From: Acidimicrobiales bacterium
GTDB taxonomy: Bacteria; Actinomycetota; Acidimicrobiia; Acidimicrobiales; GCA-2861595
Length of the DNA: 64,000 nucleotides
NCBI GenBank assembly: GCA_030448025.1
Contig: JAUJNQ010000001.1
Coordinates: forward strand, 199,258 to 263,257
Reading direction: 5' to 3'
The notes under the pieces were generated by a model. It saw nothing but the letters and a program-made list of their open reading frames with translations. It did not search any database and was not told where the DNA came from. The first letter of the stretch is position 1. Every line of letters starts with the position of its first letter. Positions 4,478-24,445 of this stretch are shown one piece after another. The translations under genes were made by a program, and so were the position numbers.

Positions 4478-5887
4478 CTAGGGCAGCAGCCGGGCGTTCT
4501 GGCCGGCGTCGAGGAAGGGTTGAGCGGCGACGCCGAGGGTGATGACGAGAACGGTAGCTAGCGACGTCGCCGCTGCCGCCGAGCGCCCGAGGACGGGAAC
4601 CGGCCTGGGGCCGTGGTCGAGGGTGAGGGGGGTGATGATGCGCAGGTAGTAGAAGAGCGAGACGACGGTGTTGATGGCGGCGACGGCGGCCAGCCAGGCG
4701 TAGCCACCGTCAATGGTGGCGGTGAAGAGCAGGAGCTTTCCAGTGAACCCAGCCAGGGGCGGGATGCCGACGAAGGAGAGCAGTGCCACGATGAGGGCGG
4801 CCGCGATCCACGGCCGCCAGCGGGCGAGGCCGCGGTAGTCCTCGAGGCTGGTGCGGCCCCGGAGCTGGACGACCACGCCGAAGGCGGCAAGCTGGCCGGC
4901 GGCGTAGGCCGTGATGAAGAACAGGAGCGCGGGAAGGGCCTGTGGGCTGCGCCCGAGGACCGGGATGGCCATCAGGGCGTATCCGACCTGGGAGACCGAT
5001 GACCAGCCGAGGAGGCGGCGGACGTCGTCCTGCCACAGGGCGGTGAGGTTGCCGACGGTCATGGTGAGGGCGGCGACGCCCGCGGCTAGCGGGCGCCACC
5101 CGACGCTGGTGTCGGGGAGCAGGCTCAGGATGCGGGCGAGGGCGACGATGGCGCCGATCTTGGGGGCGACGGTGAGGAAGGCGGCTGCGGGGGCGGGGGC
5201 GCCTTGGGCGACGTCGGGCACCCAGGTGTGGGCGGGGACGGCGCCGAGCTTGAAGGCGAGGCCGATGGTGACGAGGACGGCGGCGGCGGTGAGGGTGACG
5301 GTGGACGCGCCGGGGAGCGAGGTGGCGGTCCGGTCGTAGAGGGTGGTGCCGGCGGCGCCGAACAGCAGGGCGACCCCCGCGAGGAGGAAGGTGTTGGTGA
5401 GGGCGCCGACGAGGAAGTACTTGGCGCCGGCTTCCACTGAGAGGGCGGAGCGGCGGTGGTAGGCGGCGAGGACGTAGCCGGTGGTCGAGGACAGCAGGAC
5501 GCCGAGGAGCAGCTCGAGGGAGTCGGCGGCGCTGGCCATGGTCATGGCGCCGGCGGCGGACAGGAGGAGCAGGGCGTACCACTCGCCGTGGCGGGCGTCG
5601 GTGGCGAACCACTGCGGGGAGAGGGCGACGGTGATGGCGGTGGTGGCCAGGATGACGAGCTCGGCCCACCCGGCGGCGCCGTCGAGGGCCCAGGCGCCGT
5701 GCCAGGTGAGCTCCTGGGGCCTGGTGGCCAGCCGGATGGCGATCAGGGCGACGGCGATGCCGCAGGTGGCGAGGGCGATGGGTGCACCGACCCACTGGCG
5801 GTCGCGGCGCACGAAGAGAACGACGACGAGGACGACGGCGGCGCCGGCGACGACGGTGAGCTCGCCGGCGATGCCGCCGATGTCCAC
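4478..5887 (-). CDS. nuoN: complex-I-like antiporter subunit N (NuoN/ND2 type)
   Basis: 469 aa, about 14 TM, Mrp/ND2-type antiporter-like sequence. GTG start 1 nt after the nuoM stop. Last gene of the cluster. Confidence 0.85.
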   Translation of the reverse strand: MDIGGIAGELTVVAGAAVVLVVVLFVRRDRQWVGAPIALATCGIAVALIAIRLATRPQELTWHGAWALDGAAGWAELVILATTAITVALSPQWFATDARHGEWYALLLLSAAGAMTMASAADSLELLLGVLLSSTTGYVLAAYHRRSALSVEAGAKYFLVGALTNTFLLAGVALLFGAAGTTLYDRTATSLPGASTVTLTAAAVLVTIGLAFKLGAVPAHTWVPDVAQGAPAPAAAFLTVAPKIGAIVALARILSLLPDTSVGWRPLAAGVAALTMTVGNLTALWQDDVRRLLGWSSVSQVGYALMAIPVLGRSPQALPALLFFITAYAAGQLAAFGVVVQLRGRTSLEDYRGLARWRPWIAAALIVALLSFVGIPPLAGFTGKLLLFTATIDGGYAWLAAVAAINTVVSLFYYLRIITPLTLDHGPRPVPVLGRSAAAATSLATVLVITLGVAAQPFLDAGQNARLLP

Positions 5888-5888
5888 C

Positions 5889-7376
5889 TCAGCCGGTCCC
5901 GACGAGCAGCCGGCTGGTGCCGTCGATGAGGTCGAGCAGCCAGCGGGGGTACACGCCGATGAGCACGATCAGGGCGATCAGCACGCCGAGGATGGCGGTC
6001 TCGGACCTTGCCAGGTCGGGGAACTGGTGGTGTTCGGGTGGGAGCTCACCGAAGAACAGCTTCTGGAGCATCTGGAGGAACAGGGCTGCGGTGATGAGGA
6101 GCCCGAGGAGGGCGACGGCCGCGGCCGCCGGGTAGACGGCGAAGGTGCCGATGAAGATCTGGACCTCGGCGACGAACCCGGCGAGGCCGGGGAGGCCGAG
6201 GCTGGCGAAGGCGGCGATGGTGGTGGCGAAGGTCAAGGTGCGGGCGGGCTGGGCGAGGCCGCCGTAGTGGTCCAGGTCGTAGTCCTGGGTGCGTTGCCAG
6301 AAGGATCCGGCGATGAGGAACAGGGCGCCGGTGATGAGCCCGTGGGCGACCATCTCGACGGTGGCGCCGGTGAGGGCGAGGCGGCGGGCGTCGGCGTGGT
6401 CGGCGGCCATGGCGCCGGCCACGGCGATGCCGAGGACGGCGTAGCCCATGTGGTTGATCGACGTGTAGGCGATCCGGGCCTTGAGGTTGGTCTGGCCGAG
6501 GGCGACGAGGGCGCCGTAGACGATGCTGATGGTGGCGACGATGGCCAGGAGGAACGCCCAGTCGGCGAAGGTGTCCGAGAGCATGGCGAGCGGGATGCGG
6601 ATGAGGCCGAAGGTGCCCATCTTCAACAGGACGCCGGCCAGGATGGCTGAGACGGGTCCTGGGGCGTCGACGTGGGCTGGCGGCAGCCAGGTGTGCACGG
6701 GGACGAGCGGCGTCTTCACGGCCAGCCCGACGATCAGGGCGAGGAGGACCATCCCGGCCCGCAACCCGGCGCCGGCGAGCGGCTGGGTGCGGATGATGGT
6801 GGCCATGTCGAAGGTGAGCGGGTCGGTCTCGAGATAGAGGCCGAGGATGCCGAGCAGCATGACGAGTGAGCCGGCCAGGGTGTACAGGAAGAACTTGAGG
6901 GCGGTGACCCGGGGCTGGCCGTGGCCCCACCGGGCGATGAGGAAGTACATGCCGACGAGGCTGAGGTCGAAGAAGACGTAGAACAGGAGGAGGTCGGTGG
7001 TGAGGAACAGCCCGAGCGACACCGACTCGAGGAACAGCATCCAGGCGTAGTAGTGCCGGGGCTGGCCCTTGGTGTCGACGGGGTAGGCGACGGCCGCGCA
7101 GAACAGCAGGGCGGTGAGGGAGGCGAGGGCGAGGGCGATGCCGTCGACACCGACGCGCCAGCCGACGCCGAGGGAGGGGATCCACGGTGCCCGCTCGTTC
7201 AGCTGGAACAGCGCCGTCGAGCTGGTGTCGTAGCGGACCCAGGCGACGACCATCAGCACCAGGGGGACGGCGGTGGCTGCGACGGCCACCCACCGGGCGG
7301 TGCGGCCGTCCAACCGACGGGCCGCCACCAGCAGGACGGCTCCCGCGAACGGCACGACGATGGAGGCGGTAAGCAC
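5889..7376 (-). CDS. nuoM: complex-I-like antiporter subunit M (NuoM/ND4 type)
   Basis: 495 aa with motifs such as LFLESVSLGLFLTTDLLLFYVFFDLSLVGMYFLI, VHTWLPPAHVDAPGPVSAILAGVLLKMG. GTG start 2 nt after the nuoL stop. Confidence 0.88.
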   Translation of the reverse strand: MLTASIVVPFAGAVLLVAARRLDGRTARWVAVAATAVPLVLMVVAWVRYDTSSTALFQLNERAPWIPSLGVGWRVGVDGIALALASLTALLFCAAVAYPVDTKGQPRHYYAWMLFLESVSLGLFLTTDLLLFYVFFDLSLVGMYFLIARWGHGQPRVTALKFFLYTLAGSLVMLLGILGLYLETDPLTFDMATIIRTQPLAGAGLRAGMVLLALIVGLAVKTPLVPVHTWLPPAHVDAPGPVSAILAGVLLKMGTFGLIRIPLAMLSDTFADWAFLLAIVATISIVYGALVALGQTNLKARIAYTSINHMGYAVLGIAVAGAMAADHADARRLALTGATVEMVAHGLITGALFLIAGSFWQRTQDYDLDHYGGLAQPARTLTFATTIAAFASLGLPGLAGFVAEVQIFIGTFAVYPAAAAVALLGLLITAALFLQMLQKLFFGELPPEHHQFPDLARSETAILGVLIALIVLIGVYPRWLLDLIDGTSRLLVGTG

Positions 7377-7378
7377 GC

Positions 7379-9301
7379 CTACCTCGCCACCGCGGCCAGC
7401 ACGACGAGGACGACGGCGCCGCCGGCGGCGACGACGTAGTAGTGGTGGGCCAGGCCCGTGTGGAGCCGGCGGACGTCCCGGCCACCTTGGGCGACGACCC
7501 CGGTGATCTGGCGGACGGCGCCGTCGACGCCGCGCTCGGTAACGGTCGCGCCCAGCCGGGCGGCCAGGCGGGTGAGGGCGGCGGCGGCCCGCACGCCAGC
7601 ATCGACGACCCGATGGTCGGCCCGGGCCGCGGCGACCGCCAGCCTCGGGGTTAGGGCGGTCGCGGCGCGAATCGGGGCGTCGAGGACCAGGGTGTCGAAC
7701 CGGCCCAGCCCGCGGGCGACGGCCAGCACCGGATCGACGATGACGGCCTTGGTACCGGCCGGCAGGGCGAACCAGTCGGCGACGGCAGCTCGGCGACGGT
7801 CGGGCCTCTCGCGGCCGAGGGCGCCGCTCCGAAAGGCGGTGACGGCCCCGTAGGCGGCGGCCGCCAGGACCAGCAGGGCGGCGATGGCCTCCACGGGAGG
7901 CCCTTCGGGCAGCTCCCCGCCGGCCAGGCGGGCGATGGCGTCATGAGCCGCCGGCCACCACAGAACCCCGAGGCCGAGCGACACCACGACCGACGCCCAG
8001 ACGGCGATCTGCTCGACGCGGGCGGGGCGGCGGGCCAGCTCCGGAGCGGTGTCAGGCGGCGGCGGCCCAAAGGCGAGCAGGTGGAAGCGGGCGGCGTACC
8101 AGGCGCTCAGCCCGCCGGCCAGCACGACGCCGGCGGCAAGCGAGGGCGCCGCCTTCCCGGCGGCGGAGACGATGGCCTCTTTGGTCCACGCGGCCCCCAG
8201 CGGCGGCACCGCGGCCAAGGCCAGCGCCAGCACCGCCGACGCGGTGGCGGTCGCCCTGAGCTCCCGCCCGAGACGCATGCGCCCGAGCTCAGAGCTCGAG
8301 GCCGCTTCGATGGCGATCCCGGCGGCTAGGAACAGACCGACCTTGAACGCGGCGTGGGCGACGAGGTGAGCCAACGCCGCGGCGGGGTAGCCGGCACCGA
8401 CGGCCACGAACATCAGCCCGTACTGGGCCGAGGTCGATGCGGCCAGCAGCTTCTTGGCGTCCTGCTGCATGGTGGCGATGACGCCACCGGCGAGGGCGGT
8501 GGCCAGCCCGACGGCGATGACCACCGGCCCGAACCAGGCGGCCCGGTCGAGCACCGGTTGCAGCCGGATGAGCGCGAAGGCGCCGGCGGCCACCATGGTG
8601 GCGGCGTGCAGGAGCGCGGACACCGACGTCGGTCCGGCCATGGCCGAGAACAGCCACGGGCTGAACGGCAGCTGCGCCGACTTGGCCGCCGCGGCCAGCA
8701 CGATCCCCCCGACGAACAGGTGCAGCCAGCCGCCGTCGAGGCGGGCCAAGTCGGCGTAGGCGAGCGAACCGGTCCCGGCGGCGGCGGCGCCGACTACCGC
8801 GAACAGGCCGAGGTCACCGAAGCGGGTGACGAGGAAGGCGTGGGCTGCGGCCGCTGGCTTGCCGGCCTCCTCCCACTCCGAGGCGATGAGCGCCCAGGAG
8901 CAGGCGCCGACCAGCTCCCAGCCGATCAGGAGGGTCAGCACGTCATCGGCCAGCACCAGCAGCTCCATTGCTCCGGCGAACCCGACGAGGATGGCCACGA
9001 GCCGGGACAGGCCGCGGCGCCGCTCGTGGAACGAGGCGTAGGCGACGACCAGCAGGGCGGCGACGGGCACCACGATGCCGACCACCGCCGCGGTATCGTC
9101 GACCGCGAGGCGCAGCGTCAGCCCGGCCCCCCACCGGTAGGAACCCTGCGGGCGGGCGGCGGCCGCCCACCCGGCCAGGGCGATGACCCCGGCCAGCAGC
9201 GCAGCCGCGGGCGCGGCGATCCGGGCGCGGGAGCGGTTGGCCCCGGCGAGCCACAACACCGGCGCGGCGGCGACGGGCACCAGCGGGACGAGCCAGATCA
9301 T
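7379..9301 (-). CDS. nuoL: complex-I-like subunit L (NuoL/ND5 type) with C-terminal lateral helix
   Basis: About 640 aa. Contains GWELVGACSWALI and SAQLPFSPWLFSAMAGPTSVSALLHAATMVAAG. The C-terminus (VIVDPVLAVARGLGRFDTLVLDAPIRA...VRRLHTGLAHHYYVVAAGGAVVLVVL) matches the HL helix plus last TM. ATG at 9301 overlaps the nuoK stop; an alternative TTG start is at 9304. Confidence 0.88.
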   Translation of the reverse strand: MIWLVPLVPVAAAPVLWLAGANRSRARIAAPAAALLAGVIALAGWAAAARPQGSYRWGAGLTLRLAVDDTAAVVGIVVPVAALLVVAYASFHERRRGLSRLVAILVGFAGAMELLVLADDVLTLLIGWELVGACSWALIASEWEEAGKPAAAAHAFLVTRFGDLGLFAVVGAAAAGTGSLAYADLARLDGGWLHLFVGGIVLAAAAKSAQLPFSPWLFSAMAGPTSVSALLHAATMVAAGAFALIRLQPVLDRAAWFGPVVIAVGLATALAGGVIATMQQDAKKLLAASTSAQYGLMFVAVGAGYPAAALAHLVAHAAFKVGLFLAAGIAIEAASSSELGRMRLGRELRATATASAVLALALAAVPPLGAAWTKEAIVSAAGKAAPSLAAGVVLAGGLSAWYAARFHLLAFGPPPPDTAPELARRPARVEQIAVWASVVVSLGLGVLWWPAAHDAIARLAGGELPEGPPVEAIAALLVLAAAAYGAVTAFRSGALGRERPDRRRAAVADWFALPAGTKAVIVDPVLAVARGLGRFDTLVLDAPIRAATALTPRLAVAAARADHRVVDAGVRAAAALTRLAARLGATVTERGVDGAVRQITGVVAQGGRDVRRLHTGLAHHYYVVAAGGAVVLVVLAAVAR

Positions 9302-9606
9302 CAACGTCCCATCGAGTCGAGGCCTTCGGTCATGTCGACCTGGCGGGCCCGGTAGAGGGCGACGACGACAGCGAGGCCGATGGCCATCTCGATCGCCATG
9401 ACCGCCATGGCCAGGATGAGCAGCAGCTGCCCTTTGGGTTCACCACCGGCCGAGTAGGCCCACAGCCCACCGCCGGCCAGCATCACCCCGTTGATCATGA
9501 GCTCGATGCCCATCAGCAGCATCACGATCGACTGCTGGGCCAAAGCACCCCACAGCCCGAGGCCGAGCAGGGCGGCCGCCACGATCAGCACCGATACGAT
9601 GGTCAA
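9301..9606 (-). CDS. nuoK: complex-I-like subunit K (NuoK/ND4L type)
   Basis: 101 aa, 3 TM, MGIELMINGVML...AMAVMAIEMAIGLAVVVALYR. TTG start overlaps the nuoJ stop (TTGA). The listed 202-aa ORF is an upstream over-extension. Confidence 0.85.
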   Translation of the reverse strand: MTIVSVLIVAAALLGLGLWGALAQQSIVMLLMGIELMINGVMLAGGGLWAYSAGGEPKGQLLLILAMAVMAIEMAIGLAVVVALYRARQVDMTEGLDSMGR

Positions 9607-10262
9607 TGCATCCCGCCGTGGCCGTCCCCGCCGTGGCCGTCCCCGCCGTCGGTGCTCGTCTCGGGGACGACGCCGGTGGGGTACGTGCCGAGGACAGGGT
9701 CGAGGGGAGGCGGGAGGGATCCGTCGTCGCCGGCCGCCTCGCCGTAGCGGCTGCGGCGGCTCGACAGGACGACCGAGCCGATCATCGTCGCCACCAGGGC
9801 GACCGCCGCCGACTCGAAGATCAGCATCGAGCGGCCCATCAGCTCGGTGCCCAGCTCGACGATCACCGGCCGGCCCGGCTCCAGCGGCCGGTCGGGGAAG
9901 CGGCCCCACACGGCCACGACGATGCCGCCTCCGAACAGCACCCAGCCGGCAGCCGCAGCCAGACGCGGCTGGTGGACCATGACCATCGGGTTCAGCCCGG
10001 CCGGGTTCATCATGAAGGCGACCATGAAGATGGCCATCACGGTCATCTCCACCGTCATCATGAACAGCAGGGCGACACCCAGGTAGGCGCCTCCCAGCAG
10101 CAGGAGGATGGCGCCGACGTTGAGGAACGAGACGAGGAGCAGGAACGTGGCCCGCACCATCGAGTCGGTGCGGAACACCCGCCAGCCCGAGAGGACGGCG
10201 GCGGCCGCGAACACCCAGAACGAGACGTGCACGAAGACCGACGGTGAGCTGACGTCGATCAC
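9603..10262 (-). CDS. nuoJ: complex-I-like subunit J (NuoJ/ND6 type) with Asp/Gly/His-rich C-terminal tail
   Basis: GTG at 10262 (VIDVSSPSVFVHVSFWVFAAAAVLSGWRVF...) overlaps the nuoH stop (GTGA). About 5 TM. The tail ends ...TSTDGGDGHGGDGHGGMH. The listed 437-aa ORF over-extends into nuoH. Confidence 0.8.
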   Translation of the reverse strand: MIDVSSPSVFVHVSFWVFAAAAVLSGWRVFRTDSMVRATFLLLVSFLNVGAILLLLGGAYLGVALLFMMTVEMTVMAIFMVAFMMNPAGLNPMVMVHQPRLAAAAGWVLFGGGIVVAVWGRFPDRPLEPGRPVIVELGTELMGRSMLIFESAAVALVATMIGSVVLSSRRSRYGEAAGDDGSLPPPLDPVLGTYPTGVVPETSTDGGDGHGGDGHGGMH

Positions 10263-11188
10263 AGCGCTTCCACCCCGGCGATGACCAGGTCGAGAAAGGC
10301 CAGTGGCAGCAGCACCAGCCAGCAGACAGTGACGAACCGCTCGGTCCGCACCCGGGCGAAGAGGTGGCCGGAGGCGACCAGGGCGGCCAGCACGACCAAG
10401 GTCTTCAGGACGACCCAGGCCGGGCCCGGGAGCACCGGGCCCTGCCAGCCGCCGAGGAACACCGTGGCCGCCATCGCCGAGAACGAGGTCAGCATGGCGG
10501 CACGGGCTCCGGACCAGACCAGGCGGGGCCGGCCTGACACATCGGCCGTCGTGCCCCCGGACAGGTCGTCGCCGTCGGCCAGGTTCAGCGGCCCCCAGGT
10601 CGACGAGCCGAGGGCGACGACGGCGAACAGCGGCAACCCGAGGGGCTGGCGGACGACGTTCCACAACCCGTGCTGTGACTCGACGATCCGGCTGAGCTGG
10701 AGGGACTCGGCGGGGATCGCCGCCGCGATCAGGACGAACATGCTCAGCAGCAGGTACGACAGGCCGGCGGCCAGGAACCGGTAGGCGGCCAGCAGCGACT
10801 GGTGGGTGTTGGCCGACCAGCCGTGCAGGAAGATGGCCACGATGGCCAGCGACTCGACGGTGCCCCACAGCACGATGCCGGCCTCGACATCGGCGACGGA
10901 GAACGACGCCGACCACGGGATCACGGCGAGGCCGGCCGCGGCCAGGCCCGCGTACAGCGCGGGGGCAAGCGCCCAGGAGGCGGCGTCGGGACGCTCGGTG
11001 GCCGACGGCTGCTGCACGACCAGGAGCGCCGCCCGGCGGAGCGGGCCGGCCAGCACCGACCGGCCGATGCCTGCCCCGCTGACGGCGGCGGCCACCGCCG
11101 CGTCAAGCACGGCGACCACATAGGCGCCGGCCGCAAGCACGCCGGCGGTCAGCAGCGGTGCAGCCCACACCTCCGCCTGGGCGGTCAC
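10259..11188 (-). CDS. nuoH: divergent complex-I-like subunit H (NuoH/ND1 type)
   Basis: 309 aa. HGWSANTHQSLLAAYRFLAAGLSYLL aligns by eye to GWaSNsKYallGglRaaAQmiSYE. FLGGWQGP and ARVRTERFVTVCWLVLLP resemble the C-terminal RxxxPRxRxDq...W. The AETNRxPFD loop is replaced by GSSTWGPLNLADGDD. GTG start overlaps the upstream stop. Confidence 0.7.
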   Translation of the reverse strand: MTAQAEVWAAPLLTAGVLAAGAYVVAVLDAAVAAAVSGAGIGRSVLAGPLRRAALLVVQQPSATERPDAASWALAPALYAGLAAAGLAVIPWSASFSVADVEAGIVLWGTVESLAIVAIFLHGWSANTHQSLLAAYRFLAAGLSYLLLSMFVLIAAAIPAESLQLSRIVESQHGLWNVVRQPLGLPLFAVVALGSSTWGPLNLADGDDLSGGTTADVSGRPRLVWSGARAAMLTSFSAMAATVFLGGWQGPVLPGPAWVVLKTLVVLAALVASGHLFARVRTERFVTVCWLVLLPLAFLDLVIAGVEAL

Positions 11189-12225
11189 GCCTGGGCCTCG
11201 ATCACCGCTTCGGCACGATCGGTCGGCAGGTCGAAGCTGCAGATCGTGACCACGGCGTCGGACCAGTCCTGGCCGACCAGGACCTCGGCGACCCGCTCCA
11301 GTGACGGGCCGGGACTTCGGCCTTCGGGTGCCGACGGGTCGAGGCGGCGCACGAGGCGGGCCCGGGCGTCCTCACCGTCGATCACGCCGACACCCGACCA
11401 GGCGGCCGGCAGGCCGCTGCGGCGCACGAGTCGCGCCAGCGCCGCCCTCGACGCCGGGGCGGGTGCGGCTCGGGCCAGCCGGGCCGCTCGCACGGCCAAG
11501 GCACCCAGTCCAGCCAGGCGCAGAGCCTCGGCCAACCACCGAAGGTCGTGCTGCGCCCCACCAGCGGCTGGATCGAGCCGGTCGAGCCGAGGCCCCGAAC
11601 CGAGGTCGAGTACCTCCAGCTTCGCCTCCTGCACGACATCGCCCTGCAGAACCGCATGCACCCGCAGCCCGTTTGGGAACCCGGGCAGGAACGGGCCCAG
11701 GACCACCGGCAGCCGGTCCAGGGCCAGGCCATCTCGATCGTCTCCGGTCATGGCCATCGGCCGGCCCCAGGGGACGCCGCCCATCATCCCCTCGCCTCCC
11801 TGCCCGTGATCGCCCCGCCCCTCGAACCGGTTCGGAGGATCGTCGGCCAACACCGCCGCATCTGATCGGATCCGACCCAGGCACAGGTCACGGTGGAGGG
11901 CCACCACCGAGCCGACCGGATCCGCGTCGGTCACGACCGACGCGTCCCGCAGCGCCGCCGGCCGGTCGCCGTCGACGTCCGCTGTCCACCACAGCGTGCC
12001 CCGTGGCGCCGGCAGCTGGTCGTGCACCCGGTCGACGGCCACACCAAGCGGTCCCGGGAAGCGGCCGGCGGCCACCAGCACCGTGGCATGCCGCGGGGAC
12101 ACCACGAGCCGCAGCCGCGCATCGAAGGCCAGCTCCACCGGCAGGAGACCGGTCCCGCCGCCGCGGGCCACGAACACCGGCACCGGGGCGGTCGCCGCCA
12201 AGCGACGGACCGCCGCTACTGCCAC
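11185..12225 (-). CDS. degenerate NuoB-NuoD fusion-like protein (Q-module relic without Fe-S or quinone-site residues)
   Basis: 346 aa. N-terminal LRLVVSPRHATVLVAAGRFPGPLGVAVDRVHDQLPAPRGTLWW resembles NuoB RfG...SPRqADvmiVaGtvt.km.p.l..vydQMPePKwVi. VVLGPFLPGFPNGLRVHAVLQGDVVQEAKL resembles NuoD NfGPQHPaaHGvlRlvleLdGEvV. The C-terminus LVGQDWSDAVVTICSFDLPTDRAE resembles NuoD ..G..iaDvvai.gSiD.vmGevDR. Only 2 Cys in the whole protein. Its GTG start overlaps the nuoA 3' end by 10 nt. Confidence 0.55.
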   Translation of the reverse strand: MAVAAVRRLAATAPVPVFVARGGGTGLLPVELAFDARLRLVVSPRHATVLVAAGRFPGPLGVAVDRVHDQLPAPRGTLWWTADVDGDRPAALRDASVVTDADPVGSVVALHRDLCLGRIRSDAAVLADDPPNRFEGRGDHGQGGEGMMGGVPWGRPMAMTGDDRDGLALDRLPVVLGPFLPGFPNGLRVHAVLQGDVVQEAKLEVLDLGSGPRLDRLDPAAGGAQHDLRWLAEALRLAGLGALAVRAARLARAAPAPASRAALARLVRRSGLPAAWSGVGVIDGEDARARLVRRLDPSAPEGRSPGPSLERVAEVLVGQDWSDAVVTICSFDLPTDRAEAVIEAQA

Positions 12226-12563
12226 CGGAAGGCGCCCTCACGCCAGGCGTACAGGATCCCGAGCGACAACAACCCCAGGAACACGCCCATGTCGGCGAAC
12301 GCGGTCATGCCCTCCTCGACGAAGACGACCGCCCACGGGTACATGAACATCATCTCCATCTCGAAAGCGACGAACACGAGGGTCATGGGGTAGTAGCGGG
12401 CGTGGAACCGGCTCCACGCATGCGTCTCCGAAATACCGCCGCCCAGGAACGGCGCACGGAACGGCCACAGCCCCTTCTTCCCGGCCCGCCACCCCCGCGC
12501 AAGGAAGACCGCGACCAGCACCGACCCGAACGCCGCGGAAGCCGACGCCAGGACGCTCAGCAC
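12216..12563 (-). CDS. nuoA: complex-I-like subunit A (NuoA/ND3 type)
   Basis: 115 aa, 3 TM. YYPMTLVFVAFEMEMMFMYPWAVVF...LGILYAWREGAFRWQ matches the NuoA FDvEv.FlfPWA / Y.wkkGaLeW pattern. Confidence 0.85.
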   Translation of the reverse strand: MLSVLASASAAFGSVLVAVFLARGWRAGKKGLWPFRAPFLGGGISETHAWSRFHARYYPMTLVFVAFEMEMMFMYPWAVVFVEEGMTAFADMGVFLGLLSLGILYAWREGAFRWQ

Positions 12564-12723: not shown

Positions 12724-13155
12724 TCACCGGTCGTCCGCCGCCGGGAACCGAGCGACCACGGCGAGGTAGGCGGCGAGGGCGAGGAGGAACACCACGAACC
12801 ACGTGAGGTTGCGTCCGGGCATGAAGTGGGTGCTGATGTGGCCGAGGAACAGGTCCATCCAAGGCTCGTGGGCCACGCCACCAGCGAAGAGGAAGTCGGG
12901 AAACATGGCCATGACGTGGGCCAGGAACGGCCACACCAGGGGCAGCGGCACCGGTCTGCGAATGCGGGCGGCGACCGCTGCCATCACCACCAGCGCCGCG
13001 GCGGCGCCCACGAAGAAGTGGGTGAACCAGTGGAAGCGGGCGTCGTGGCCCCGGTAGGAGGCGTAAAGGCCCACCTCGGCCAGCACGGCGACGACGCACC
13101 ACAGGCACACCCGCAGCGCTGGAGTCGGCTGGACGGCTGGGTTCGCTGCGGTCAT
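12724..13155 (-). CDS. His-rich polytopic membrane protein, unknown function
   Basis: 143 aa, about 4 TM. Histidines cluster at helix ends (GHDARFHWFTHFF, FLAHVMAMFPDF, AHEPWMDLFLGHISTHF). 4-nt overlap with the upstream gene. Confidence 0.5.
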   Translation of the reverse strand: MTAANPAVQPTPALRVCLWCVVAVLAEVGLYASYRGHDARFHWFTHFFVGAAAALVVMAAVAARIRRPVPLPLVWPFLAHVMAMFPDFLFAGGVAHEPWMDLFLGHISTHFMPGRNLTWFVVFLLALAAYLAVVARFPAADDR

Positions 13156-13676
13156 GGCAAAGCGTCCAGGATGGTCCGGACCTCGCTGAGCTCGTCAGCC
13201 ACGGCCGGGTCGAGTGTCCGGTACCGGATGGCGCCGGCGCTGTCGACGACGGCGTAGCCCACCGGCGTACCGCCCCCCCGGGGGCGCCGCATGCCATAGG
13301 CCGCCGCCAGCGCCCCGTCCGCATCGTTGACGACCGCGTCAGCGCCCTCACAGCTGTGGGTGCCGGCACCGTCCACCACCACCGCCGTCGCCGTGGCCTT
13401 GTCGGGAAGGCCGCTCGCGGCGAAGACCCGGCACAGCCGGGGGAGACGTCCCGTCCGCTCGAAGAACACGACCGTGGGTCGCGACGGGGCGGGAAGGCCC
13501 GGCGCCACCGCGGGTGCCGGCACGGGAAGGTCGCCGGCGTCGACGAACCCGGGCCGCTGCCACGCCGGATCGGGGTCGTCGAGTGGCTCTCGCGCCGCCC
13601 GGGCGACGGAGAGCAGCAGGCCTAGGCCGATCGCCGCCGCCAGCCAGATGACCACCAGCGGCCTTGCCCCACTCAC
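13152..13676 (-). CDS. membrane-anchored thioredoxin-fold (AhpC/TlpA-like) protein lacking a CxxC
   Basis: 174 aa. N-terminal TM anchor, then PTVVFFERTGRLPRLCRVF ... GYAVVDSAGAIRYRTLDP, a layout typical of the redoxin fold. Overlaps both neighbours by 4 nt. Confidence 0.45.
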   Translation of the reverse strand: MSGARPLVVIWLAAAIGLGLLLSVARAAREPLDDPDPAWQRPGFVDAGDLPVPAPAVAPGLPAPSRPTVVFFERTGRLPRLCRVFAASGLPDKATATAVVVDGAGTHSCEGADAVVNDADGALAAAYGMRRPRGGGTPVGYAVVDSAGAIRYRTLDPAVADELSEVRTILDALP

Positions 13677-14641
13677 TGCTGTGCCTGCTTGTCGGAGTAG
13701 CGGAGCTGCCAGCTGCCGCCGGCGTCCGAGGAGCGGTAGATGGCGGTGGCATCATCGGCCGACGCCGCTGCGTAGACGTCGGTCCCGGCCACCAGCAGGG
13801 CCTGTGGTTGCCCGGCCAGTGCCGCTCGAGGCTCCCACCGGTCGTCGACGCGCCGGTAGGTCTGCCCGGTCCTCGACACGCCCCACAGGCCCAGCTCGGT
13901 CCCCCAGGAGACAAAGGCCAGCTGCGGCCCGTCGACTGGTTGCCAGCTGCGACCGCCGTCGCCACTGTCGGCCAGCCCCCGCTCGGTCATGGCCACCACG
14001 TGGTCGCCGTCGGCCGGGTCGACGGCGAAGGTGCCGATGCCGATCTCCGAGCGGGTGTCCCACCGCTTGCCGTCGTCGCTGACCATGAACCGTCCGCCGG
14101 TGGAGTCGTAGCCGTAGACCTTGCCGTGGGCGGCGACCAGCGAGTGGAAGTCGGCCTCTCCGAGCAGTGACAGCGGCTTCCACATCCGGCCGCCGTTGGT
14201 GCTCTCGATGAGGCCGAGGAGCGGGGGGCTGCCGGGCTTGCGCAAGTCCTTGTCGTTGGGATCCGGGTGGCCGCTGCCCAGGAAGCGGTCAGGTCCGACC
14301 ACGGTGAAGCCCATCGTGTCCTGCACGGCATCACCGACCCGCTGCGCCTTGCCCTGAGCGGGAACCCGGTACAGCCCGAGGTGGGTCGCCGCGTACAGGT
14401 CCTTGTCGGCCGGGTTGATGCCGAGGCCGTGCACATGAGCGACCCCCCCGGACGAGCCCGCCGTCCTCGGGCTGTCGTCGTCCCGCACGACCACGACTAG
14501 GACGGCCAGCACCGCCAGCGCCCCGGCCACCACCGCCCAGGCAGGAAACGCCCGTCGGCTCGGACGCTTGTTCTGCACCGGCGGCCGCCTCGGCTGGCCG
14601 CCGGTCCGGGTCTTTGCCGACCCCGTCTTGCTCGACGCCAT
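13673..14641 (-). CDS. F510_1955-family / BNR-sialidase-like beta-propeller protein, membrane-anchored
   Basis: 322 aa. TM anchor followed by repeated S.D.G..W motifs (STNGGRMWKP, SDDGKRWD, SGDGGRSWQP, SSDAGGSWQ). This family is recurrently found in heavy-metal islands. Confidence 0.6.
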   Translation of the reverse strand: MASSKTGSAKTRTGGQPRRPPVQNKRPSRRAFPAWAVVAGALAVLAVLVVVVRDDDSPRTAGSSGGVAHVHGLGINPADKDLYAATHLGLYRVPAQGKAQRVGDAVQDTMGFTVVGPDRFLGSGHPDPNDKDLRKPGSPPLLGLIESTNGGRMWKPLSLLGEADFHSLVAAHGKVYGYDSTGGRFMVSDDGKRWDTRSEIGIGTFAVDPADGDHVVAMTERGLADSGDGGRSWQPVDGPQLAFVSWGTELGLWGVSRTGQTYRRVDDRWEPRAALAGQPQALLVAGTDVYAAASADDATAIYRSSDAGGSWQLRYSDKQAQQ

Positions 14642-14643
14642 CG

Positions 14644-14844
14644 TCAGTCCGCCCTGCGGGACGCGGCGTCGCTCGGTGCAGCGGGCGGCCGATGGCGGAG
14701 CTCGGCGATCTCGTCACGTAGATCGGCCACCTCGCTGCGCTCGCCGGTCGACCTGCGGGCCCCGACGGCGTACCAGGCGAGAAACCCGACGGCCACGACA
14801 CCCATCATCAAGCTGCAGGCCAGCAGCGGTAGGAGTGCACCCAT
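14644..14844 (-). CDS. short DUF2933-like membrane protein (second-TM half plus coiled-coil tail)
   Basis: 66 aa. LLPLLACSLMMG matches the LPLL..AACPLSM.MMR core of the two DUF2933 genes. The EVADLRDEIAELR tail parallels their RLRAEVATLRAE tail. Confidence 0.45.
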   Translation of the reverse strand: MGALLPLLACSLMMGVVAVGFLAWYAVGARRSTGERSEVADLRDEIAELRHRPPAAPSDAASRRAD

Positions 14845-14853
14845 GCCCCTCCC

Positions 14854-15111
14854 CTACCGACTCTGCCGCTCAGCGCGCAGCGTGGCTACCTCAGCCCGCA
14901 GCCTGGCGACCTGATCGGCGTCGTCTGTCCCGTCCATCGTCTTGGAGCTGCCCATGGAGCCCATGACCCGCATCATCAGCAGCATCGACAAGGGGCAGGC
15001 CGCCACGATCAGCAGCGGGAGGACGGCCGCCGCCACCATGGGTGCCAAGACGTAGAGCCCCAGCCCGGCTGCGGCGAGCGCCGCCATCACCTTCCAGTTC
15101 AAGCACCTCAT
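14854..15111 (-). CDS. DUF2933 family small membrane protein
   Basis: ATG at 15111 (MRCLNWKVMAALAAAGLGLYVLAP...LPLLIVAACPLSMLLMMRVM...), the canonical DUF2933 signature. 4-nt overlap with the upstream gene. Confidence 0.7.
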   Translation of the reverse strand: MRCLNWKVMAALAAAGLGLYVLAPMVAAAVLPLLIVAACPLSMLLMMRVMGSMGSSKTMDGTDDADQVARLRAEVATLRAERQSR

Positions 15112-15404
15112 GAGCCGTTCCTCTCGTCGTTGCGGCCACTGCACGCCTCGTGCATCCGGTCGTGCACTGCCCGGTCCTGGGGTGACAGTCCGGCGGACAT
15201 GCGGGCGTGCATCTCGTCCATCTCCTCGGTGGTGTCGCCGCTCATCCGCATGGCTCCACCGGTCCCGTGCATCTCATCCGTCTCGGCGACTGGGTCACCA
15301 CGACCCGCAGAGGCGTTCCCAGCGACGAAGCCGACGCCGAGTGTCGCGGTGACCGCGGCGGTTGCCGCCAGCCCCCGCAGGGCGGTACGAAACGATCTGT
15401 CCAT
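15108..15404 (-). CDS. secreted Met/His-rich putative Cu-binding protein (SilE/PcoE-like composition)
   Basis: ATG at 15404 preceded by AAGGAGGA. Signal-like MDRSFRTALRGLAATAAVTATLGVGFVAGNASA, then ETDEMHGTGGAMRMSGDTTEEMDEMHARM...HDRMHEAC. Confidence 0.6.
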   Translation of the reverse strand: MDRSFRTALRGLAATAAVTATLGVGFVAGNASAGRGDPVAETDEMHGTGGAMRMSGDTTEEMDEMHARMSAGLSPQDRAVHDRMHEACSGRNDERNGS

Positions 15405-15497
15405 TGCTCCTCCTTGTCGGGCCCTCGGGGTGAGAGCCGGTCGGCCTGGTCGCGCCACCGGGCGGCAGCGCGTGTCGAGGGGCGCGCCGGGGCGCGC

Positions 15498-16405: not shown

Positions 16406-16436
16406 GGTGGACACCCACTGAAGGAGAGCGAACTCG

Positions 16437-16685: not shown

Positions 16686-16767
16686 TGGGCTTCACCACGC
16701 CCCGCACAAGACCAGCCAGATGGTCGCGGCCCTCGTACGGGCCAGACACGAAGAACGAGGAGCCGTA

Positions 16768-17089
16768 ATGAAGATGTGCTTCAACTGGAAGGTGATCACC
16801 GCTCTTGCCGTGGCCGGGCTCGGAGCGGCCGCGTTCGCGCCGGATGTGCTGGGGGCGGCACTGCCGCTGCTCCTGCTCGCTGCCTGCCCGTTGTCGATGG
16901 TCGCGATGATGCGCGCCATGTCAGGTGGCAACCGCTGCGACGACCGGTCGACGGGGAACCGCAGTGAGACCAGCACCGACGCCGGCTCGAGCGAGGCTCA
17001 CCCGCCTGCGGGCCGAGATCGATCAGCTTCGAGCCGAGCAGGGACGAGGCAAGGATCGTGGACCGGGCGAGCAAGAGCACGTCACGTGA
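16768..17089 (+). pseudogene. DUF2933 family protein, apparent 1-nt frameshift before the coiled-coil tail
   Basis: ATG at 16768 after GAGGAG (MKMCFNWKVITALAVAGLGAAAFAP...LPLLLLAACPLSMVAMMRAM). The conserved tail LTRLRAEIDQLRAEQ... is in the +1 frame from about 16995 (CACCC run) and stops at 17089. Confidence 0.6.
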
Positions 17090-17275
17090 GCATGCCCGCA
17101 CCTGCCCCTCGGCAGCCGCACCGTCCGGGTGGGGAGGTCCCGGTCCGTGGCCCACAGACCGGGCTCGGCCGGCGCGGCCGTGCTAAGCGCACGCCAGCGT
17201 TGCCGGCACTCCGGATCCAACGACGTTGACCGGCAGCCGCGGCAACCCTACCCCTTCCTCCACCCATGAGTCGAC

Positions 17276-18425
17276 ATGACCGCGCCTGAGGCCTCCGCCA
17301 TCGGAACGGCGAAGCATCGGGCCGTTGACGTGCTGATCGTCGGGGCCGGCCAGGCCGGCCTCGGCACCGGCTACTGGCTGTCGCAGCGGACGTCGGCGTC
17401 GTTCCTGATCGTCGACGCCGCCCCGCGGCCGGGTGAGAGCTGGTGCAACCGGTGGGACAGCTTGACGCTGTTCACACCCCGACGGTTCAGCGCCCTGCCC
17501 GGGCTCCGCTTCCCGAAGGGCAAGGGCCGTTACCCGACCAAGGCGGAGATGCAGGCCTACCTGGCCGACTACGCCCGTCGCTTCGACCTGCCCCTGCTGC
17601 TCAACACCCGCACCGAGGTGGTCGAGGCGGCCGAAGGCGGCGGGTTCGTGGCCCGCACGAACCGGGGCACCATCAGCGCCCGCCATATGGTGGTGGCCAC
17701 CGGCCCGTTCTCCCGACCCGCCGTGCCCGCCGCCGCCGACGGCCTTGACGTCGAGGTGCGCCAGCTGCACTCGTCGGAGTACCAGCGGCCGTCCGACATC
17801 CCCAATGGTGATGTCCTGGTGGTCGGCGGCGGGAACAGCGCCGCGCAGCTGGCCTGCGAGCTGGGCCACCCACCAGGTCACGGTCGCCGCGCCCGGTCCG
17901 CTGTGGTACCTGCCGGAGGAGATCCTCGGGATCAGCCTGTACTGGTGGATCTACCTGACCGGCATCCTCAACGCCGGCGCCGACTCCTGGGTCGGCCGGT
18001 ACGTCCGCCAGCGCGGCGACGCGATCATCGGACGCCAGCTCGACCGGCTCGTCGCCGACGGCACCGTCCGCCTGCTCGCCTCCCGGGTCGTCCAGGGCCA
18101 GGGCCGCACCCTCACCCTCGAGGACAGAACCGCACTCACACCCAGCACGGTGCTGTGGTGCACCGGGTTCCGGCCCGACCACCCCTGGCTGCGCGTGCCC
18201 GGCGCCCTGGACCCCGACGGCAACCCTCGGCACCAGGCGGGAGCCTCCCCCGTCTCGGGCCTGCACTGGATGGGCCTGCCGTGGCAGACCCGGTTGAACT
18301 CCTCCATCGCCGACGGGGTTGACCGCGACGCCCGGGACCTGGTGAGCCGACTGGAGTCACATGGGCTCAGCCACCGGACCGCACCACCAAACCCTTGCAC
18401 ACCCACCCCCGGTGGGGTAGGGTAG
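17276..18425 (+). pseudogene. CzcO-like FAD/NAD(P)-dependent oxidoreductase (flavin monooxygenase fold), one frameshift
   Basis: VDVLIVGAGQAGLGTGYWL (FAD GxGxxG) and VLVVGGGNSAAQLACEL (second GxGxxG) in frame 17276. Continuation ..THQVTVAAPGPLWYLP...VLWCTGFRPDHPWL is in frame 17745..18425. The shift is near 17870. Confidence 0.65.
18395..18423 (+). promoter_or_regulatory. csoR-copA promoter with CsoR-type operator in the spacer; likely leaderless transcript
   Basis: TTGCAC-N17-TAGGGT. The spacer ACCCACCCCCGGTGGGG closely resembles the M. tuberculosis cso operator core CCCACCCCCAGTGGGGTGGG. The -10 ends 7 nt before ATG 18431. Confidence 0.6.
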
Positions 18426-18430
18426 CCGCC

Positions 18431-18736
18431 ATGAAGGTCGACAACCAGCGGTCCGTGCTCAACCGGCTCAAGACCTCGCGCGGTCATTTGGATGGGATCA
18501 TCCGGATGGTCGAGGAGGACGCCTACTGCCCCGAGGTGATGAAGCAGCTGTCGGCGGTGCAGGGCTCGTTGGAGCGGGCCAGCCGCATCGTGCTGCGCAA
18601 CCACCTGGAGACGTGTGTGGCGGCGGCGATGGTGGCGGGGCGGACCGACGAGATCGTGGATGAGCTGATGGAGGCCCTGCGCTTCGACCGGATCACCACC
18701 GGCCCGCTGCCAGAGCCGATCGGACAGGGCACCTGA
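18431..18736 (+). CDS. csoR: copper-sensing transcriptional repressor CsoR
   Basis: 101 aa, [53 protein letters not shown], with the C-H-C Cu(I) ligand set (YC..., H...C) present. Confidence 0.9.
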
Positions 18737-23173: not shown

Positions 23174-24445
23174 GTGCCCGCACCTGCGGGCACCACTCCA
23201 GCCGAGGTCACCTCCCATGTCAGTCCTCTCGCCGTCGCGCCACCGGCCCGACGTCCCGCCCACCTGGCCCAGCTCGCGAGCCTGTGGGCCATCCTCCTCA
23301 CCGGCCTGTTCGCCGGCGGCGCATCATGCGCCGCCGTCCAAGGCGGCCTCCTCGCCGGCCTCGTCGCCCGCCGCGGCGGCCAACCGATCCCAGCCGTGGC
23401 CGGCACCGCCCGCCGAACACAACCCCGCCCCACCACACCAGCCAACAACAAGGGCAAGGCCAAGTCGGGTTCCACCCCACCCAAGCAACCGGCGGCACCC
23501 CAGCCGAACCCTCCCAGCCCCAACGCGCTAGGAGGCATTGACGACCTGTTGCCGGTAGGGGGCTTCCTCGCCGGCAAGCTCGTCTCCCACGTCCTGCTCG
23601 GCGCCGCCCTCGGAGCGGTCGGCAGCGCCGTCCAGCTGACGCCCCGCACCAGAGCGACTGTGCAGATCTTGGCCGGCGTGGTGATGCTGCTGCTGGCCCT
23701 TGACCTCCTCGGCCTCCACTGGTTCCGGCGCATCACGCCCACCCTGCCGGCCACCTGGGGTCAGCGGATCCGGCGCGACAGCCGCACCAACCCAGCCATG
23801 GGACCCACCATGCTCGGGCTGGCGTCGGTGGCCCTGCCGTGCGGGATCACCCTCAGCATGGAGGTCCTGGCCGTGGCCTCGGGGTCGGCGCTGACAGGAG
23901 CGGCGATCATGGGCGTGTTCGTGCTGGGAACCGCACCGCTGTTCGCCGTGCTCGGCTACCTGGCCCGCCGTTCGGCCACCGCGCTGCGAGGCCGGCTGGC
24001 CGTGCTGGCCGGGGCGGCCGTGCTCGTCACCGCCCTCCTCTCGGTCAACACCGGCCTGGTCCTGCTCGACGCGCCGGTCACCCTCCGCTCCCCGTTCTCC
24101 ACCGGGGATGCCGGGGCGGCCCAGGAGCCACCGCTGTCGCCGTCGGACAGCCCGGAGCCTGCCGCGCCCAGCGACGGCAGCCCGCAACGGCTCGTCGTCA
24201 ACGTCCGCGACAGCTCCTACTCGCCCTCTTCGTTGAGGGCCAAGGCCGGCAGCCCGGTGCAACTCGTGCTCCGCACCAACAACACCGTTGGCTGCACCAG
24301 TTCCATCGTCGTCCCAAACCTCAACCTGGAGGAGACGCTCCCAGAGACCGGCGAGACAGTCCTCGACCTCGGGACGCTGAAGCCCGGCAAGCTCCGGTTC
24401 ACCTGCGGGATGGGTATGTACTCCGGCTCCATCCAGGTCACATGA
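23174..24445 (+). CDS. DsbD_2/TauE-like membrane domain fused to a C-terminal cupredoxin-like domain
   Basis: 423 aa, about 6 TM (GGASCAAVQGG, VALPCGITLSMEVL). C-terminus QRLVVNVRDSSYSPSSLRAKAGSPVQLVLRTNNTVGCTSSIVVP...LRFTCGMGMYSGSIQV is typical of the cupredoxin_1 domain. The start is uncertain. Confidence 0.65.
   Translation: MPAPAGTTPAEVTSHVSPLAVAPPARRPAHLAQLASLWAILLTGLFAGGASCAAVQGGLLAGLVARRGGQPIPAVAGTARRTQPRPTTPANNKGKAKSGSTPPKQPAAPQPNPPSPNALGGIDDLLPVGGFLAGKLVSHVLLGAALGAVGSAVQLTPRTRATVQILAGVVMLLLALDLLGLHWFRRITPTLPATWGQRIRRDSRTNPAMGPTMLGLASVALPCGITLSMEVLAVASGSALTGAAIMGVFVLGTAPLFAVLGYLARRSATALRGRLAVLAGAAVLVTALLSVNTGLVLLDAPVTLRSPFSTGDAGAAQEPPLSPSDSPEPAAPSDGSPQRLVVNVRDSSYSPSSLRAKAGSPVQLVLRTNNTVGCTSSIVVPNLNLEETLPETGETVLDLGTLKPGKLRFTCGMGMYSGSIQVT

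Follow-up and report, generated by a model that had tools for sequence, protein, structure and literature searches.

In a 64-kb window of DNA (the whole stretch analysed, 64,000 nucleotides) from an Acidimicrobiales bacterium, the reverse strand encodes a 346-amino acid (aa) protein, here named X, which combines reduced counterparts of the complex I subunits NuoB and NuoD in a single chain. X is part of an operon for complex I-like membrane subunits. We infer, with a probability of roughly 50%, that this operon encodes a Cu(I)/H+ antiporter that is driven by the proton motive force and built on the membrane arm of complex I, with X as its metal-entry cap. The observations behind this proposal are the homology of X to NuoB and NuoD, the loss of its cofactor ligands, an invariant operon, ladders of methionine residues in the membrane subunits, retained proton-path residues and a neighbourhood of copper genes. 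The operon and the segments of X are listed in the order of transcription.

12216..12563, (-): NuoA-like subunit with invariant His48 and His54 and a Met-rich second transmembrane helix (TM2) (PF00507, 2.2e-22)
11185..12225, (-): X, fused NuoB-like/NuoD-like protein of 346 aa (open reading frame (ORF), homologs, profiles and AlphaFold2 (AF2) model)
11851..12225, (-): X residues 1-125, predicted NuoB-type flavodoxin-like domain without the four N2 cysteines (Foldseek, hhalign)
11716..11850, (-): X residues 126-170, Met/Gly/His-rich loop, proposed Cu(I) entry site (conservation)
11185..11715, (-): X residues 171-346 and stop codon, predicted NuoD remnant consisting of the N-terminal beta-sheet with GPFLPGFPNG, a helical bundle and the C-terminal LVGxxWxDAxxTxxS (alignment with long-form relatives, Foldseek)
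10259..11188, (-): NuoH-like subunit (PF00146, 3.7e-39)
9603..10262, (-): NuoJ-like subunit with a Gly/His-rich C-terminal tail (PF00499, 3e-14)
9301..9606, (-): NuoK-like subunit (PF00420)
7379..9304, (-): NuoL-like antiporter subunit, 641 aa (PF00361)
5889..7376, (-): NuoM-like antiporter subunit (PF00361)
4478..5887, (-): NuoN-like antiporter subunit (PF00361)

To define the family, we collected homologs of X by database search. At least 444 were found, aligning over the full length at 40-90% identity and sharing the N-terminus MAVxxLxRLAA; all are nameless or labelled "hypothetical". The nearest relatives come from metagenome-assembled genomes (MAGs) of Acidimicrobiia/Actinomycetota (63-68% identity), and outside the closest relatives identity to X is 36-69%. 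An exhaustive profile search among 1.84 billion representatives returned 315 clusters (at 50% identity) with E<=1e-30. The family of X is real but uncommon. Note that two antisense ORFs lie inside or across the X gene (11548-11865 (+) and 11893-12393 (+)), with a G+C content at the third codon position of 0.86-0.90 in a window of ~70% G+C. Their high value arises because the Ala/Gly/Asp/Arg-rich frame of X has a G+C content of 0.84 at its first codon position. We rejected both as genes and regard them as composition artefacts, the frame of X being conserved in hundreds of genomes.

We examined the operon in 80 loci from species-representative genomes (223 genomes matched) and in 2 loci obtained by protein look-ups. 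The gene order NuoA-X-H-J-K-L-M-N, with X second, was the same in every locus long enough. X starts with GTG at 12225, overlapping the NuoA-like gene by 10 nt and the NuoH-like gene by 4 nt; the overlap of 10 nt was also present in two loci with gene calls. Start and stop codons overlap as GTGA at nuoH/nuoJ and as TTGA at nuoK, leaving no room in the operon for a NuoC or NuoI gene. With the E. coli proteins as queries, no homologs of NuoB, CD, E, F, G or I were detected in the window or in the 10-kb flanks of 83 loci. The hosts are Acidimicrobiia and other Actinomycetota, Alphaproteobacteria (Caenispirillum, Aurantimonas, Fulvimarina, Amorphus, Sphingomonas, Stakelama), Gammaproteobacteria (Halomonas, Chromohalobacter, Salinicola, Salinisphaera, Endozoicomonas), and MAGs of Gemmatimonadales and Acidobacteriota.

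A preliminary description of X, made from the letters of the window, had called it a fused, miniaturised NuoB-NuoD homolog, and this is borne out by the family profiles to NuoB and NuoD and by structure comparison with Foldseek. The sequence of X alone matched nothing in Pfam at E<=1. The NuoB model of NCBIfam, TIGR01957, aligned with residues 41-75 at 13.9 bits, below its cutoff of 142.7, and weak matches to PF01058 were obtained for 15 of 25 relatives of X (best 6.8e-4). A profile of 25 family members identified NDUFS7/PSST/NuoB chains in the PDB with E=2.4e-9, placing SPRHAxVLLVAG..RVHDQLPxPR of the family on SPRQADVMIVAG..KVYDQMPEPR. This is the stretch around SPRQAD/QMPEPKWV in which a NuoB-like N-terminal third had been recognised by eye. 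In hhalign, residues 38-82 of X fell on residues 84-128 of E. coli NuoB (E=5e-5). The AF2 model of X, based on 102 sequences, had a predicted local distance difference test (pLDDT) score of 90.2 and a predicted template modelling (pTM) score of 0.88. Foldseek searches with this model returned HycG, NDUFS7, MbhJ, Nqo6 and NdhK as the best matches, with a probability of ~1.0 over ~140 columns. The top 50 matches of the full-length model were all of NuoB type, and the NuoD half was modelled separately. Profile and model together confirm that the N-terminal domain has a homologous, predicted NuoB-type flavodoxin-like fold with the core SPRQAD...YDQMPEPK.

PF00346 (NuoD) did not match X itself at E<=1. 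The family contains long forms of 420-470 aa, which are the majority among diverse representatives and carry the middle segment of NuoD (GPxARAAG..DxR..Y..F..GD). These long forms matched PF00346 (best 7.6e-15), and in a single search a profile of 20 of them found both NdhH/NuoD (2.5e-13) and NuoB (1.2e-8) in the PDB. Thus, with respect to PF01058 and PF00346, X gave no match by itself, and matches were obtained with the family profile and the long forms. The NuoD matches of the long forms are collinear, with GPFLPxxPxG falling on GPHHPSMHG of NdhH, followed by the middle segment GPxxRAxG..DxR..Y..F..GD..R..E and the C-terminal LxxLLxGxxxxDxVxxxxSxD. X aligns with the long forms from end to end with the middle segment deleted, and in the 346-aa short form of the window the NuoD remnant appears to have been shortened once more. 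The earlier statement that most of the NuoD core is gone agrees with this alignment, as the short form lacks the middle segment and retains ~180 aa of the ~400 aa of NuoD.

The model of residues 163-346 reached a pLDDT of 88.1. In Foldseek it matched almost exclusively NuoD-family proteins and large subunits of NiFe-hydrogenases. The best match was MbsL (probability 1.0, TMq 0.62), and NUCM, Nad7, NuoCD and HycE were also found. The E-values were weak (0.05-2), as would be expected where a domain has large deletions. An hhalign comparison of the X family with E. coli NuoCD alone gave a match of 18 residues with a probability of 0.2%, which we discarded as spurious.

We next analyzed the cofactor ligands. 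X has exactly two Cys residues, in DLCLGR and TICSFD as previously noted, and neither is conserved in the family. Among 102 sequences, no column contains Cys in more than 14%, and 16 of the 102 proteins are free of Cys, in line with the earlier claim that the ligands of cluster N2 are missing. In NuoB, four Cys residues in CCxxE, GxCxxxGG and GCPP ligate this [4Fe-4S] cluster. The change of the quinone-site motif GPQHPxxHG to GPFLPGFPNG was likewise read correctly: the two His positions are held by F179 (at least 90%) and P184 (invariant). For the segment of NuoD that contains the quinone-site Tyr, the short form of X has no counterpart. These alignments support the view that X would be unable to bind cluster N2 and is without the quinone-site histidines of NuoD. 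The absence of conserved Cys across the whole family means that the loss is not recent; the 102-sequence alignment rules out a strain-specific event and supports a loss that was ancestral to the family.

The highest conservation in the X family is found in the linker between the two folded domains and not in the folded remnants. This Met/Gly loop has the sequence PPNxWxGxGxHGQGGEGMMGGxPYGRPMAMTxDDRDGLxLD. G138, G143, G144, M147, G149, G150, P152, G154 and R155 are invariant. Among 78 orthologs, M147 and M157 are present in all, M148 in 77 and M159 in 76. Residues 134-166 are the sole low-confidence part of the monomer model (pLDDT 48-63), as would be expected if this segment takes on order only in contact with partner subunits. 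The preliminary description, in proposing an inert cap, overlooked this linker, the most strongly conserved element of X.

To determine whether the membrane arm has retained its proton-path residues, we aligned 68-82 orthologs per subunit to the E. coli Nuo proteins, whose numbering is used here. In the antiporter subunits, the following residues are kept in 66-70 of ~70 orthologs each: E144, K229, H334, H338, K342 and K399 of NuoL; K234, K265, H322, H348 and E407 of NuoM; and K247 and K395 of NuoN. K217 of NuoN is present in 59 of 68. Several positions are changed. The Glu in TM5 of NuoN (E133 in E. coli) is Leu in 67 of 68 orthologs, E144 of NuoM is Asp in all 70, and the position of D303 in NuoL is occupied by His in 61 of 71, whereas the window has Asp. 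The mechanism of the terminal proton module may differ from that of complex I. In the E-channel subunits, E36 of NuoK is Glu in 74 of 74 orthologs and E72 is acidic in 74 of 74 (68 Glu, 6 Asp), and the positions of D79 and E81 in NuoA are Glu in 82 of 82. NuoH is acidic at E216, E220 and E228 (Asp at the first two), and its E157 is replaced by Met, Ile or Leu. This conservation shows that selection maintains both the acidic residues of the E-channel and the proton path of L, M and N.

The small membrane subunits are enriched in methionine. Columns with at least 90% Met number 8 in NuoA (7 of them invariant), 13 in NuoJ (each in 76-77 of 78 orthologs) and 7 in NuoK, and one more column in NuoJ has Met in 64 of 78. 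In E. coli, 27 of these 29 columns are not Met, the residues being mostly Val, Ala, Leu or Ile, but also Phe, Pro, Tyr59 and two insertion columns. The membrane partners of X are closest to NdhC, NdhE and NdhG, and neither these canonical proteins nor canonical NuoA, NuoJ and NuoK have the Met residues of the family. The median Met fraction of the family compared to E. coli is 0.081 versus 0.034 for NuoA, 0.050 versus 0.033 for NuoJ and 0.089 versus 0.050 for NuoK. In NuoL, NuoM and NuoN it is lowered (0.021-0.028 versus 0.039-0.051). Thus, among the membrane subunits compared, the enrichment is confined to the E-channel subunits A, J and K.

The positions of these residues are ordered. TM2 of NuoA reads FEMEMMFMYPWA in the family, compared to FDVETVFLYPWA in canonical NdhC, and the loop preceding it contains two invariant His residues (THAWxRYH). 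In NuoK the conserved Met residues flank E36 and E72: the window has VMLLMGIELM and AMAVMAIEMA, and the family has SFVMLMMGLELM and MAVMAxEMA, where the canonical sequences are VRVLMSIELL and TVAAAEAAV. The most pronounced ladder is found in TM3 of NuoJ, which is FMMTVEMTVMAIFMVAFMMNPAGLNPMVMVHQ in the window and FMMAVEMxVMALFMVMFMMNPAGLNPMxMVHQ in the family, with 10-12 Met residues as against 1-3 in E. coli, Paracoccus and Thermosynechococcus. Its Met columns at E. coli positions 59, 63, 66, 70 and 73/74 follow an i/i+3/i+4 spacing (M-x3-M-x2-M-x3-M-x3-M) on one face of the helix; Tyr59 of E. coli is Met, and a new Glu stands beside the Met columns. The C-terminal tail of NuoJ (9603-9680 (-)) is GGDGHGGDGHGGMH in the window and GGGHGHHHH in most orthologs. 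Among the best 120 database matches of the NuoJ-like protein, identity was 57-83%. By their conservation, the E-channel subunits and the linker of X are shown to have acquired invariant thioether and imidazole side chains. In the TM helices of CusA, Ctr1 and CcoA, Met relays and MxxxM motifs mark the paths of Cu(I). These proteins have Met clusters in common with NuoA, NuoJ, NuoK and the loop of X, but they are not homologous and have other folds, and the likeness is one of analogy alone.

Next, we investigated the genes around the operon by tblastn and clustering with a limited set of queries. Of the 66 loci whose flanks reached at least 8 kb, 34 had one or more copper genes within 10 kb of the operon, representatives being confirmed by Pfam. 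Counted by locus, the copper neighbours are multicopper oxidase (21), CopB (18), DUF411 (11) and cupredoxin (7). P1B ATPase, CsoR, CopZ and CopD also occur near the operon, and CopRS-like two-component systems, MerR regulators, and CDF and RND pumps are frequent. The association was found in three bacterial classes, and genes of copper homeostasis accompany the operon in several phyla. The gene immediately before nuoA in Iamia majanohamensis is csoR, in the same orientation; copZ and a Cu-ATPase gene lie divergently upstream, and copD lies downstream. The intergenic region between copZ and csoR contains the palindrome TACCCCTAGGGGGTA, which we take to resemble published CsoR operators, and two boxes similar to it are present in an Acidimicrobiales MAG. 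Halomonas sp. KO116 carries the operon on a 314-kb plasmid, within copC-copD-azurin-copRS-MCO-copB (MCO, multicopper oxidase), and egtB-egtD follow it; X is labelled "hypothetical protein" there in RefSeq.

In the window itself, genes for CsoR, a Cu-ATPase, two DUF2933 proteins, an F510_1955-family protein, a secreted Met/His-rich protein and a DsbD_2-cupredoxin fusion lie within 12 kb. The two genes most directly linked to copper are listed here, and the others below.

18395..18736, (+): CsoR-family repressor (PF02583, 3.5e-25)
18736..21136, (+): P1B copper ATPase with HMA domain, in two overlapping ORFs, 18736-20400 and 20354-21136 (PF00122, PF00403, PF00702)

The first ATPase ORF comprises the HMA and E1-E2 domains and the first part of the hydrolase domain, and the second the remainder of the hydrolase. 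The split is a frameshift by its sequence, and reflects either a pseudogene or a sequencing error. The CsoR-box-like sequence ACCCCCGGTGGGGT is located at 18405-18418, just before the probable start of csoR. A perfect 12-bp inverted repeat that resembles a CsoR operator (CTACCCCCTGGG...CCCAGGGGGTAG, 16088-16126) is found just upstream of the ORF at 16136-16768 (+).

How the proposed antiporter might work can be outlined as follows. X, as a remnant of the quinone module (Q-module) free of cofactors, would sit on the cytoplasmic face of the arm formed by NuoH, NuoA, J, K, L, M and N, giving an eight-subunit machine without redox input that would act as an Mrp-like secondary transporter. Protons entering through L, M and N, in which the Lys/Glu/His relay is intact, would power the export of Cu(I), and perhaps of Ag(I), from the cytoplasm. 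The former E-channel, where invariant Met residues stand beside the retained glutamates of NuoA, NuoJ and NuoK, would serve as the exit path. The former quinone chamber, lined by NuoH, the His loop of NuoA and the Met loop of X, would be the cytoplasmic acceptor of Cu(I), possibly fed by CopZ. Expression would be induced by copper through CsoR in Acidimicrobiia and through CopRS or MerR-type regulators elsewhere. Substrate, direction, coupling and the placement of the X loop in the assembled complex are all inferred from sequence positions. The full combination of a Cu(I)-binding chamber (X loop, NuoA His loop, NuoH), Met/Glu conduction along the E-channel and long-range coupling of the complex I type to L, M and N is tentative, and we put it at somewhat less than an even chance.

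Several points weigh against copper export by this machine. In about half of the loci, just ordinary housekeeping genes flank the operon. Copper genes form a few small clusters per genome, and the rate of 34 of 66 is in our judgement far above chance, an enrichment estimated from general knowledge rather than computed. A CsoR-type box was sought directly upstream of nuoA in the window and not found; the CsoR-like boxes of the window occur only before csoR and before the ORF at 16136. Cytoplasmic Cu(I) sites are usually built from Cys, and Met/His sites are more typical of the periplasm. Many hosts are halophiles, so that a role in Na+ transport is conceivable, and copper export would have little evident need of three proton modules where P1B ATPases are present.

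According to the preliminary description, X would be a structural plug rather than a catalytic Q-module, that is, an inert cap sealing the NuoH/NuoA interface of an arm whose function is unrelated to X. The second half of this statement stands: having neither N2 ligands nor quinone-site His, and with no redox module nearby, X is not a catalytic Q-module. Loss of the cofactor ligands and deletion of much of NuoD would also suit a cap, as would the well predicted folded domains, whose docking surfaces are probably kept. However, a mere plug is very improbable in view of the conserved Met/Gly loop, the Met ladders and the copper islands. Conservation is strongest in the flexible loop and not in the folded scaffolds, and the X gene is present in every operon, overlapping nuoA by 10 nt in the window and in the two loci with gene calls. 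Moreover, Mrp antiporters work without any cap (PMC8165549), so that the retention of NuoH, NuoA and X argues for a chamber that is used. Loop conservation, the Met/His substitutions in A, J and K and the copper islands together point to an active role of X in metal handling. A role of X in a pump that is still driven by redox chemistry was also considered, with copper on the Met/His loop replacing N2, or with a remaining quinone site, and with copper or quinone redox reactions as the source of energy. Eddie et al. speculated on such a source of energy (PMC8233155), the scaffold of the quinone chamber (NuoH, NuoA, NuoB/NuoD) is retained throughout, and cytochromes c and cupredoxins are encoded nearby. 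This we consider very improbable, as an electron-input subunit, Fe-S ligands and His/Tyr quinone ligands are all absent. In addition, cytochrome c, cupredoxin and multicopper oxidase, the possible partners, are periplasmic, whereas X is of cytoplasmic descent and has no signal peptide or TM helix, and the Met ladder, located in the membrane, does not link a donor to an acceptor.

The Met ladders and the copper context apply equally to a copper machine of another direction or form, such as one for import of Cu(I) or its delivery to cuproenzymes, for movement of a copper ligand complex (Cu-ergothioneine), or a proton or ion conductor gated by copper. MxxxM motifs are also found in the copper importers Ctr1 and CcoA. 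The neighbouring multicopper oxidases, cupredoxins and cytochromes c need copper or electrons, and egtB-egtD follows the operon in Halomonadaceae. However, control of the CsoR type and the resistance-island genes (CopA-ATPase, CopB, CopD, CopRS) are typical of copper excess, a setting in which an importer would be harmful, and we hold such a role to be unlikely. It is quite unlikely that the operon encodes a Na+(K+)/H+ antiporter that resembles Mrp and serves salt or pH homeostasis, with the methionines and copper neighbours being incidental. Many hosts are halophilic or marine (Halomonas, Chromohalobacter, Salinisphaera, Salinicola), a CPA1-type Na+/H+ antiporter gene is present in six to seven flanks, and the architecture without a redox module is like that of Mrp (PMC8165549). 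Against this, the 28 columns with at least 90% Met in A, J and K are maintained in different phyla, at a genomic G+C content of 63-75%, which disfavours ATG. Sites for Na+ are made of carboxylate and carbonyl oxygens, not of thioethers. MrpE, F and G, the Na+ module, are missing while NuoH and NuoA are present, and the copper association holds in three bacterial classes.

We compared the X system with known members of the superfamily. Complex I (NDH-1) has NuoB (PSST, NdhK; ~160 aa) and NuoD (49 kDa, NdhH; ~400 aa) as separate proteins, whereas X is one chain of 346 aa. X shares with NuoB the predicted fold and SPRxA...DQxPxPR; from NuoD it has probably kept the N-terminal beta-sheet (GPxxP...LxGxxV), a portion of the helical bundle, and the motif at the C-terminus. 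Its gene is located between nuoA and nuoH, the usual place of nuoB, C and D. X differs from these subunits in that the N2 cysteines and quinone-site His residues are missing, NuoC and NuoI are not among its partners, and a family-specific Met/Gly loop joins its halves. All seven membrane subunits (NuoA, H, J, K, L, M, N) are present, but the redox modules are absent. X descends from NuoB plus NuoD but does not have the features that define either family: its scores are below the curated thresholds, and the N2 Cys residues, the quinone-site His residues and the complete NuoD core are missing.

Mrp (Mnh/Sha) likewise is free of redox modules and consists of NuoL/M/N-type antiporter subunits with small NuoK- and NuoJ-like subunits (PMC8165549; see also PMC7419157). 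We propose that the X system works on the principle of Mrp, in which proton influx via the antiporter subunits drives the exit of cations at the small subunits (PMC8165549). Mrp has no NuoH, NuoA or peripheral cap; the X operon encodes NuoH, NuoA and X together with three PF00361 subunits and a NuoK/MrpC-like subunit, and has no further genes between A and N. The Mrp Na+ module (MrpE/F/G) is absent from the X operon, in which the proposed path would be lined by thioethers. The large subunit of the Ehr complexes is said to have lost its catalytic metal ligands, reportedly as described by Marreiros in 2013. By description, Ehr complexes are the nearest "catalytically dead" relatives; they are related to complex I and group 4 hydrogenases and have no known function (PMC7894505). 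They have separate EhrL and EhrS and an Ech-like gene set, EhrA-D, and are set apart by this description from the X operon with its NuoA/J/L/M/N-type subunits and fused B-D (PMC7894505). The descriptions of Ehr include no fusion, NuoD deletion, Met ladders or copper context. Coupling of antiporter subunits to chemistry other than that of quinones has precedents in DAB (DabA/DabB) and in CupA of the cyanobacterial NDH-1MS. These systems add a carbonic anhydrase-like subunit to NuoL/NdhF-type proteins, whereas the X system remodels the Q-module and the E-channel.

The closest report is that of Eddie et al. (2021; PMC8233155), in which a seven-gene cassette, nuoA-hypothetical-nuoD-H-J-K-L (ACP86_11540-11570), interrupts the copper-resistance cluster of Marinobacter atlanticus. 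The cassette is co-expressed with cop genes, and the authors speculated that energy might be obtained from copper redox reactions (PMC8233155). As described, it is similar to the X operon in being complex I-like, without an electron-input module and in a copper cluster, but it has separate hypothetical and NuoD-like genes and a single antiporter-like subunit, with no nuoM or nuoN (PMC8233155). The authors did not analyse the sequences for cofactor ligands or methionines. A review of the superfamily covering complex I, NDH-1, MBH, MBS and Mrp contains nothing like the X system (PMC8165549), and in the full-text literature searched we found no description of the X family beyond the side remark on Marinobacter. 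We therefore regard the X system as a new variant within the complex I-like superfamily that belongs to no named subgroup.

If the proposed Cu(I)/H+ antiporter is correct, the X system would be a new functional class in the superfamily of complex I, Mrp and membrane-bound hydrogenases, and the first complex I-type machine to move a metal ion. Bacterial resistance to copper (or silver) would gain a new type of determinant, one that has spread horizontally, including on plasmids. As a natural, redox-free minimal model of eight subunits with a simple ligand for coupling of the Q-site to the antiporters, it would bear on two open questions: whether the E-channel of complex I conducts ions outward, and how occupancy of the quinone chamber reaches the antiporter-like subunits. 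More than 300 sequence clusters of X carry only the annotation "hypothetical protein", and the partner subunits are mis-annotated as NADH-quinone oxidoreductase, with the result that respiratory complex I is predicted too often in genomes and MAGs.

The remaining features around the operon include a string of genes upstream of the nuoA-like gene on the same strand.

12724..15458, (-): same-strand gene string upstream of the nuoA-like gene (ORFs, family scans)
15108..15458, (-): secreted small Met/His-rich protein at the head of the string (EMHGTGGAMRM, EMDEMHARM, DRMHEAC), no Pfam match
14854..15144, (-): DUF2933 protein
between 13673..14641 and 14854..15144, (-): 66-aa ORF between the F510_1955-family and DUF2933 genes
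13673..14641, (-): F510_1955-family beta-propeller protein, which also adjoins the operon in another locus (L053)
13152..13676, (-): 174-aa exported protein, no family match
12724..13155, (-): 143-aa membrane protein, His-rich (HWFTHFF, HVMAMFPDF, GHISTHFMPG), no family match
16720..17229, (+): second DUF2933 protein
23174..24445, (+): DsbD_2-cupredoxin fusion

The product of 15108-15458 may, by its composition, be a periplasmic copper-binding protein. The genes for the 143-aa and 174-aa proteins were not seen near the operon in other loci. In Halomonadaceae, egtB-egtD, for ergothioneine biosynthesis, directly follow the nuoN-like gene (20015-22287 in locus L084), possibly on the same transcript. 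A cluster of EgtB-like proteins comprised 10 loci, with 11 flagged (e.g. L021, L028, L029, L044, L060, L063, L065, L078). Since ergothioneine binds copper, a link to the substrate of the transporter is conceivable. Scanning of positions 4000-16500 revealed no sigma-70 promoter-like site and one terminator-like site, compared to an average of 2.3 in shuffled sequences, and Rfam gave no match in the window. Adjoining the 3' end of the operon, a 104-aa ORF (4118-4432 (+)) matches just the C-terminal part of UDP-glycosyltransferases (EryCIII-like_C, UDPGT) and is apparently a gene fragment.

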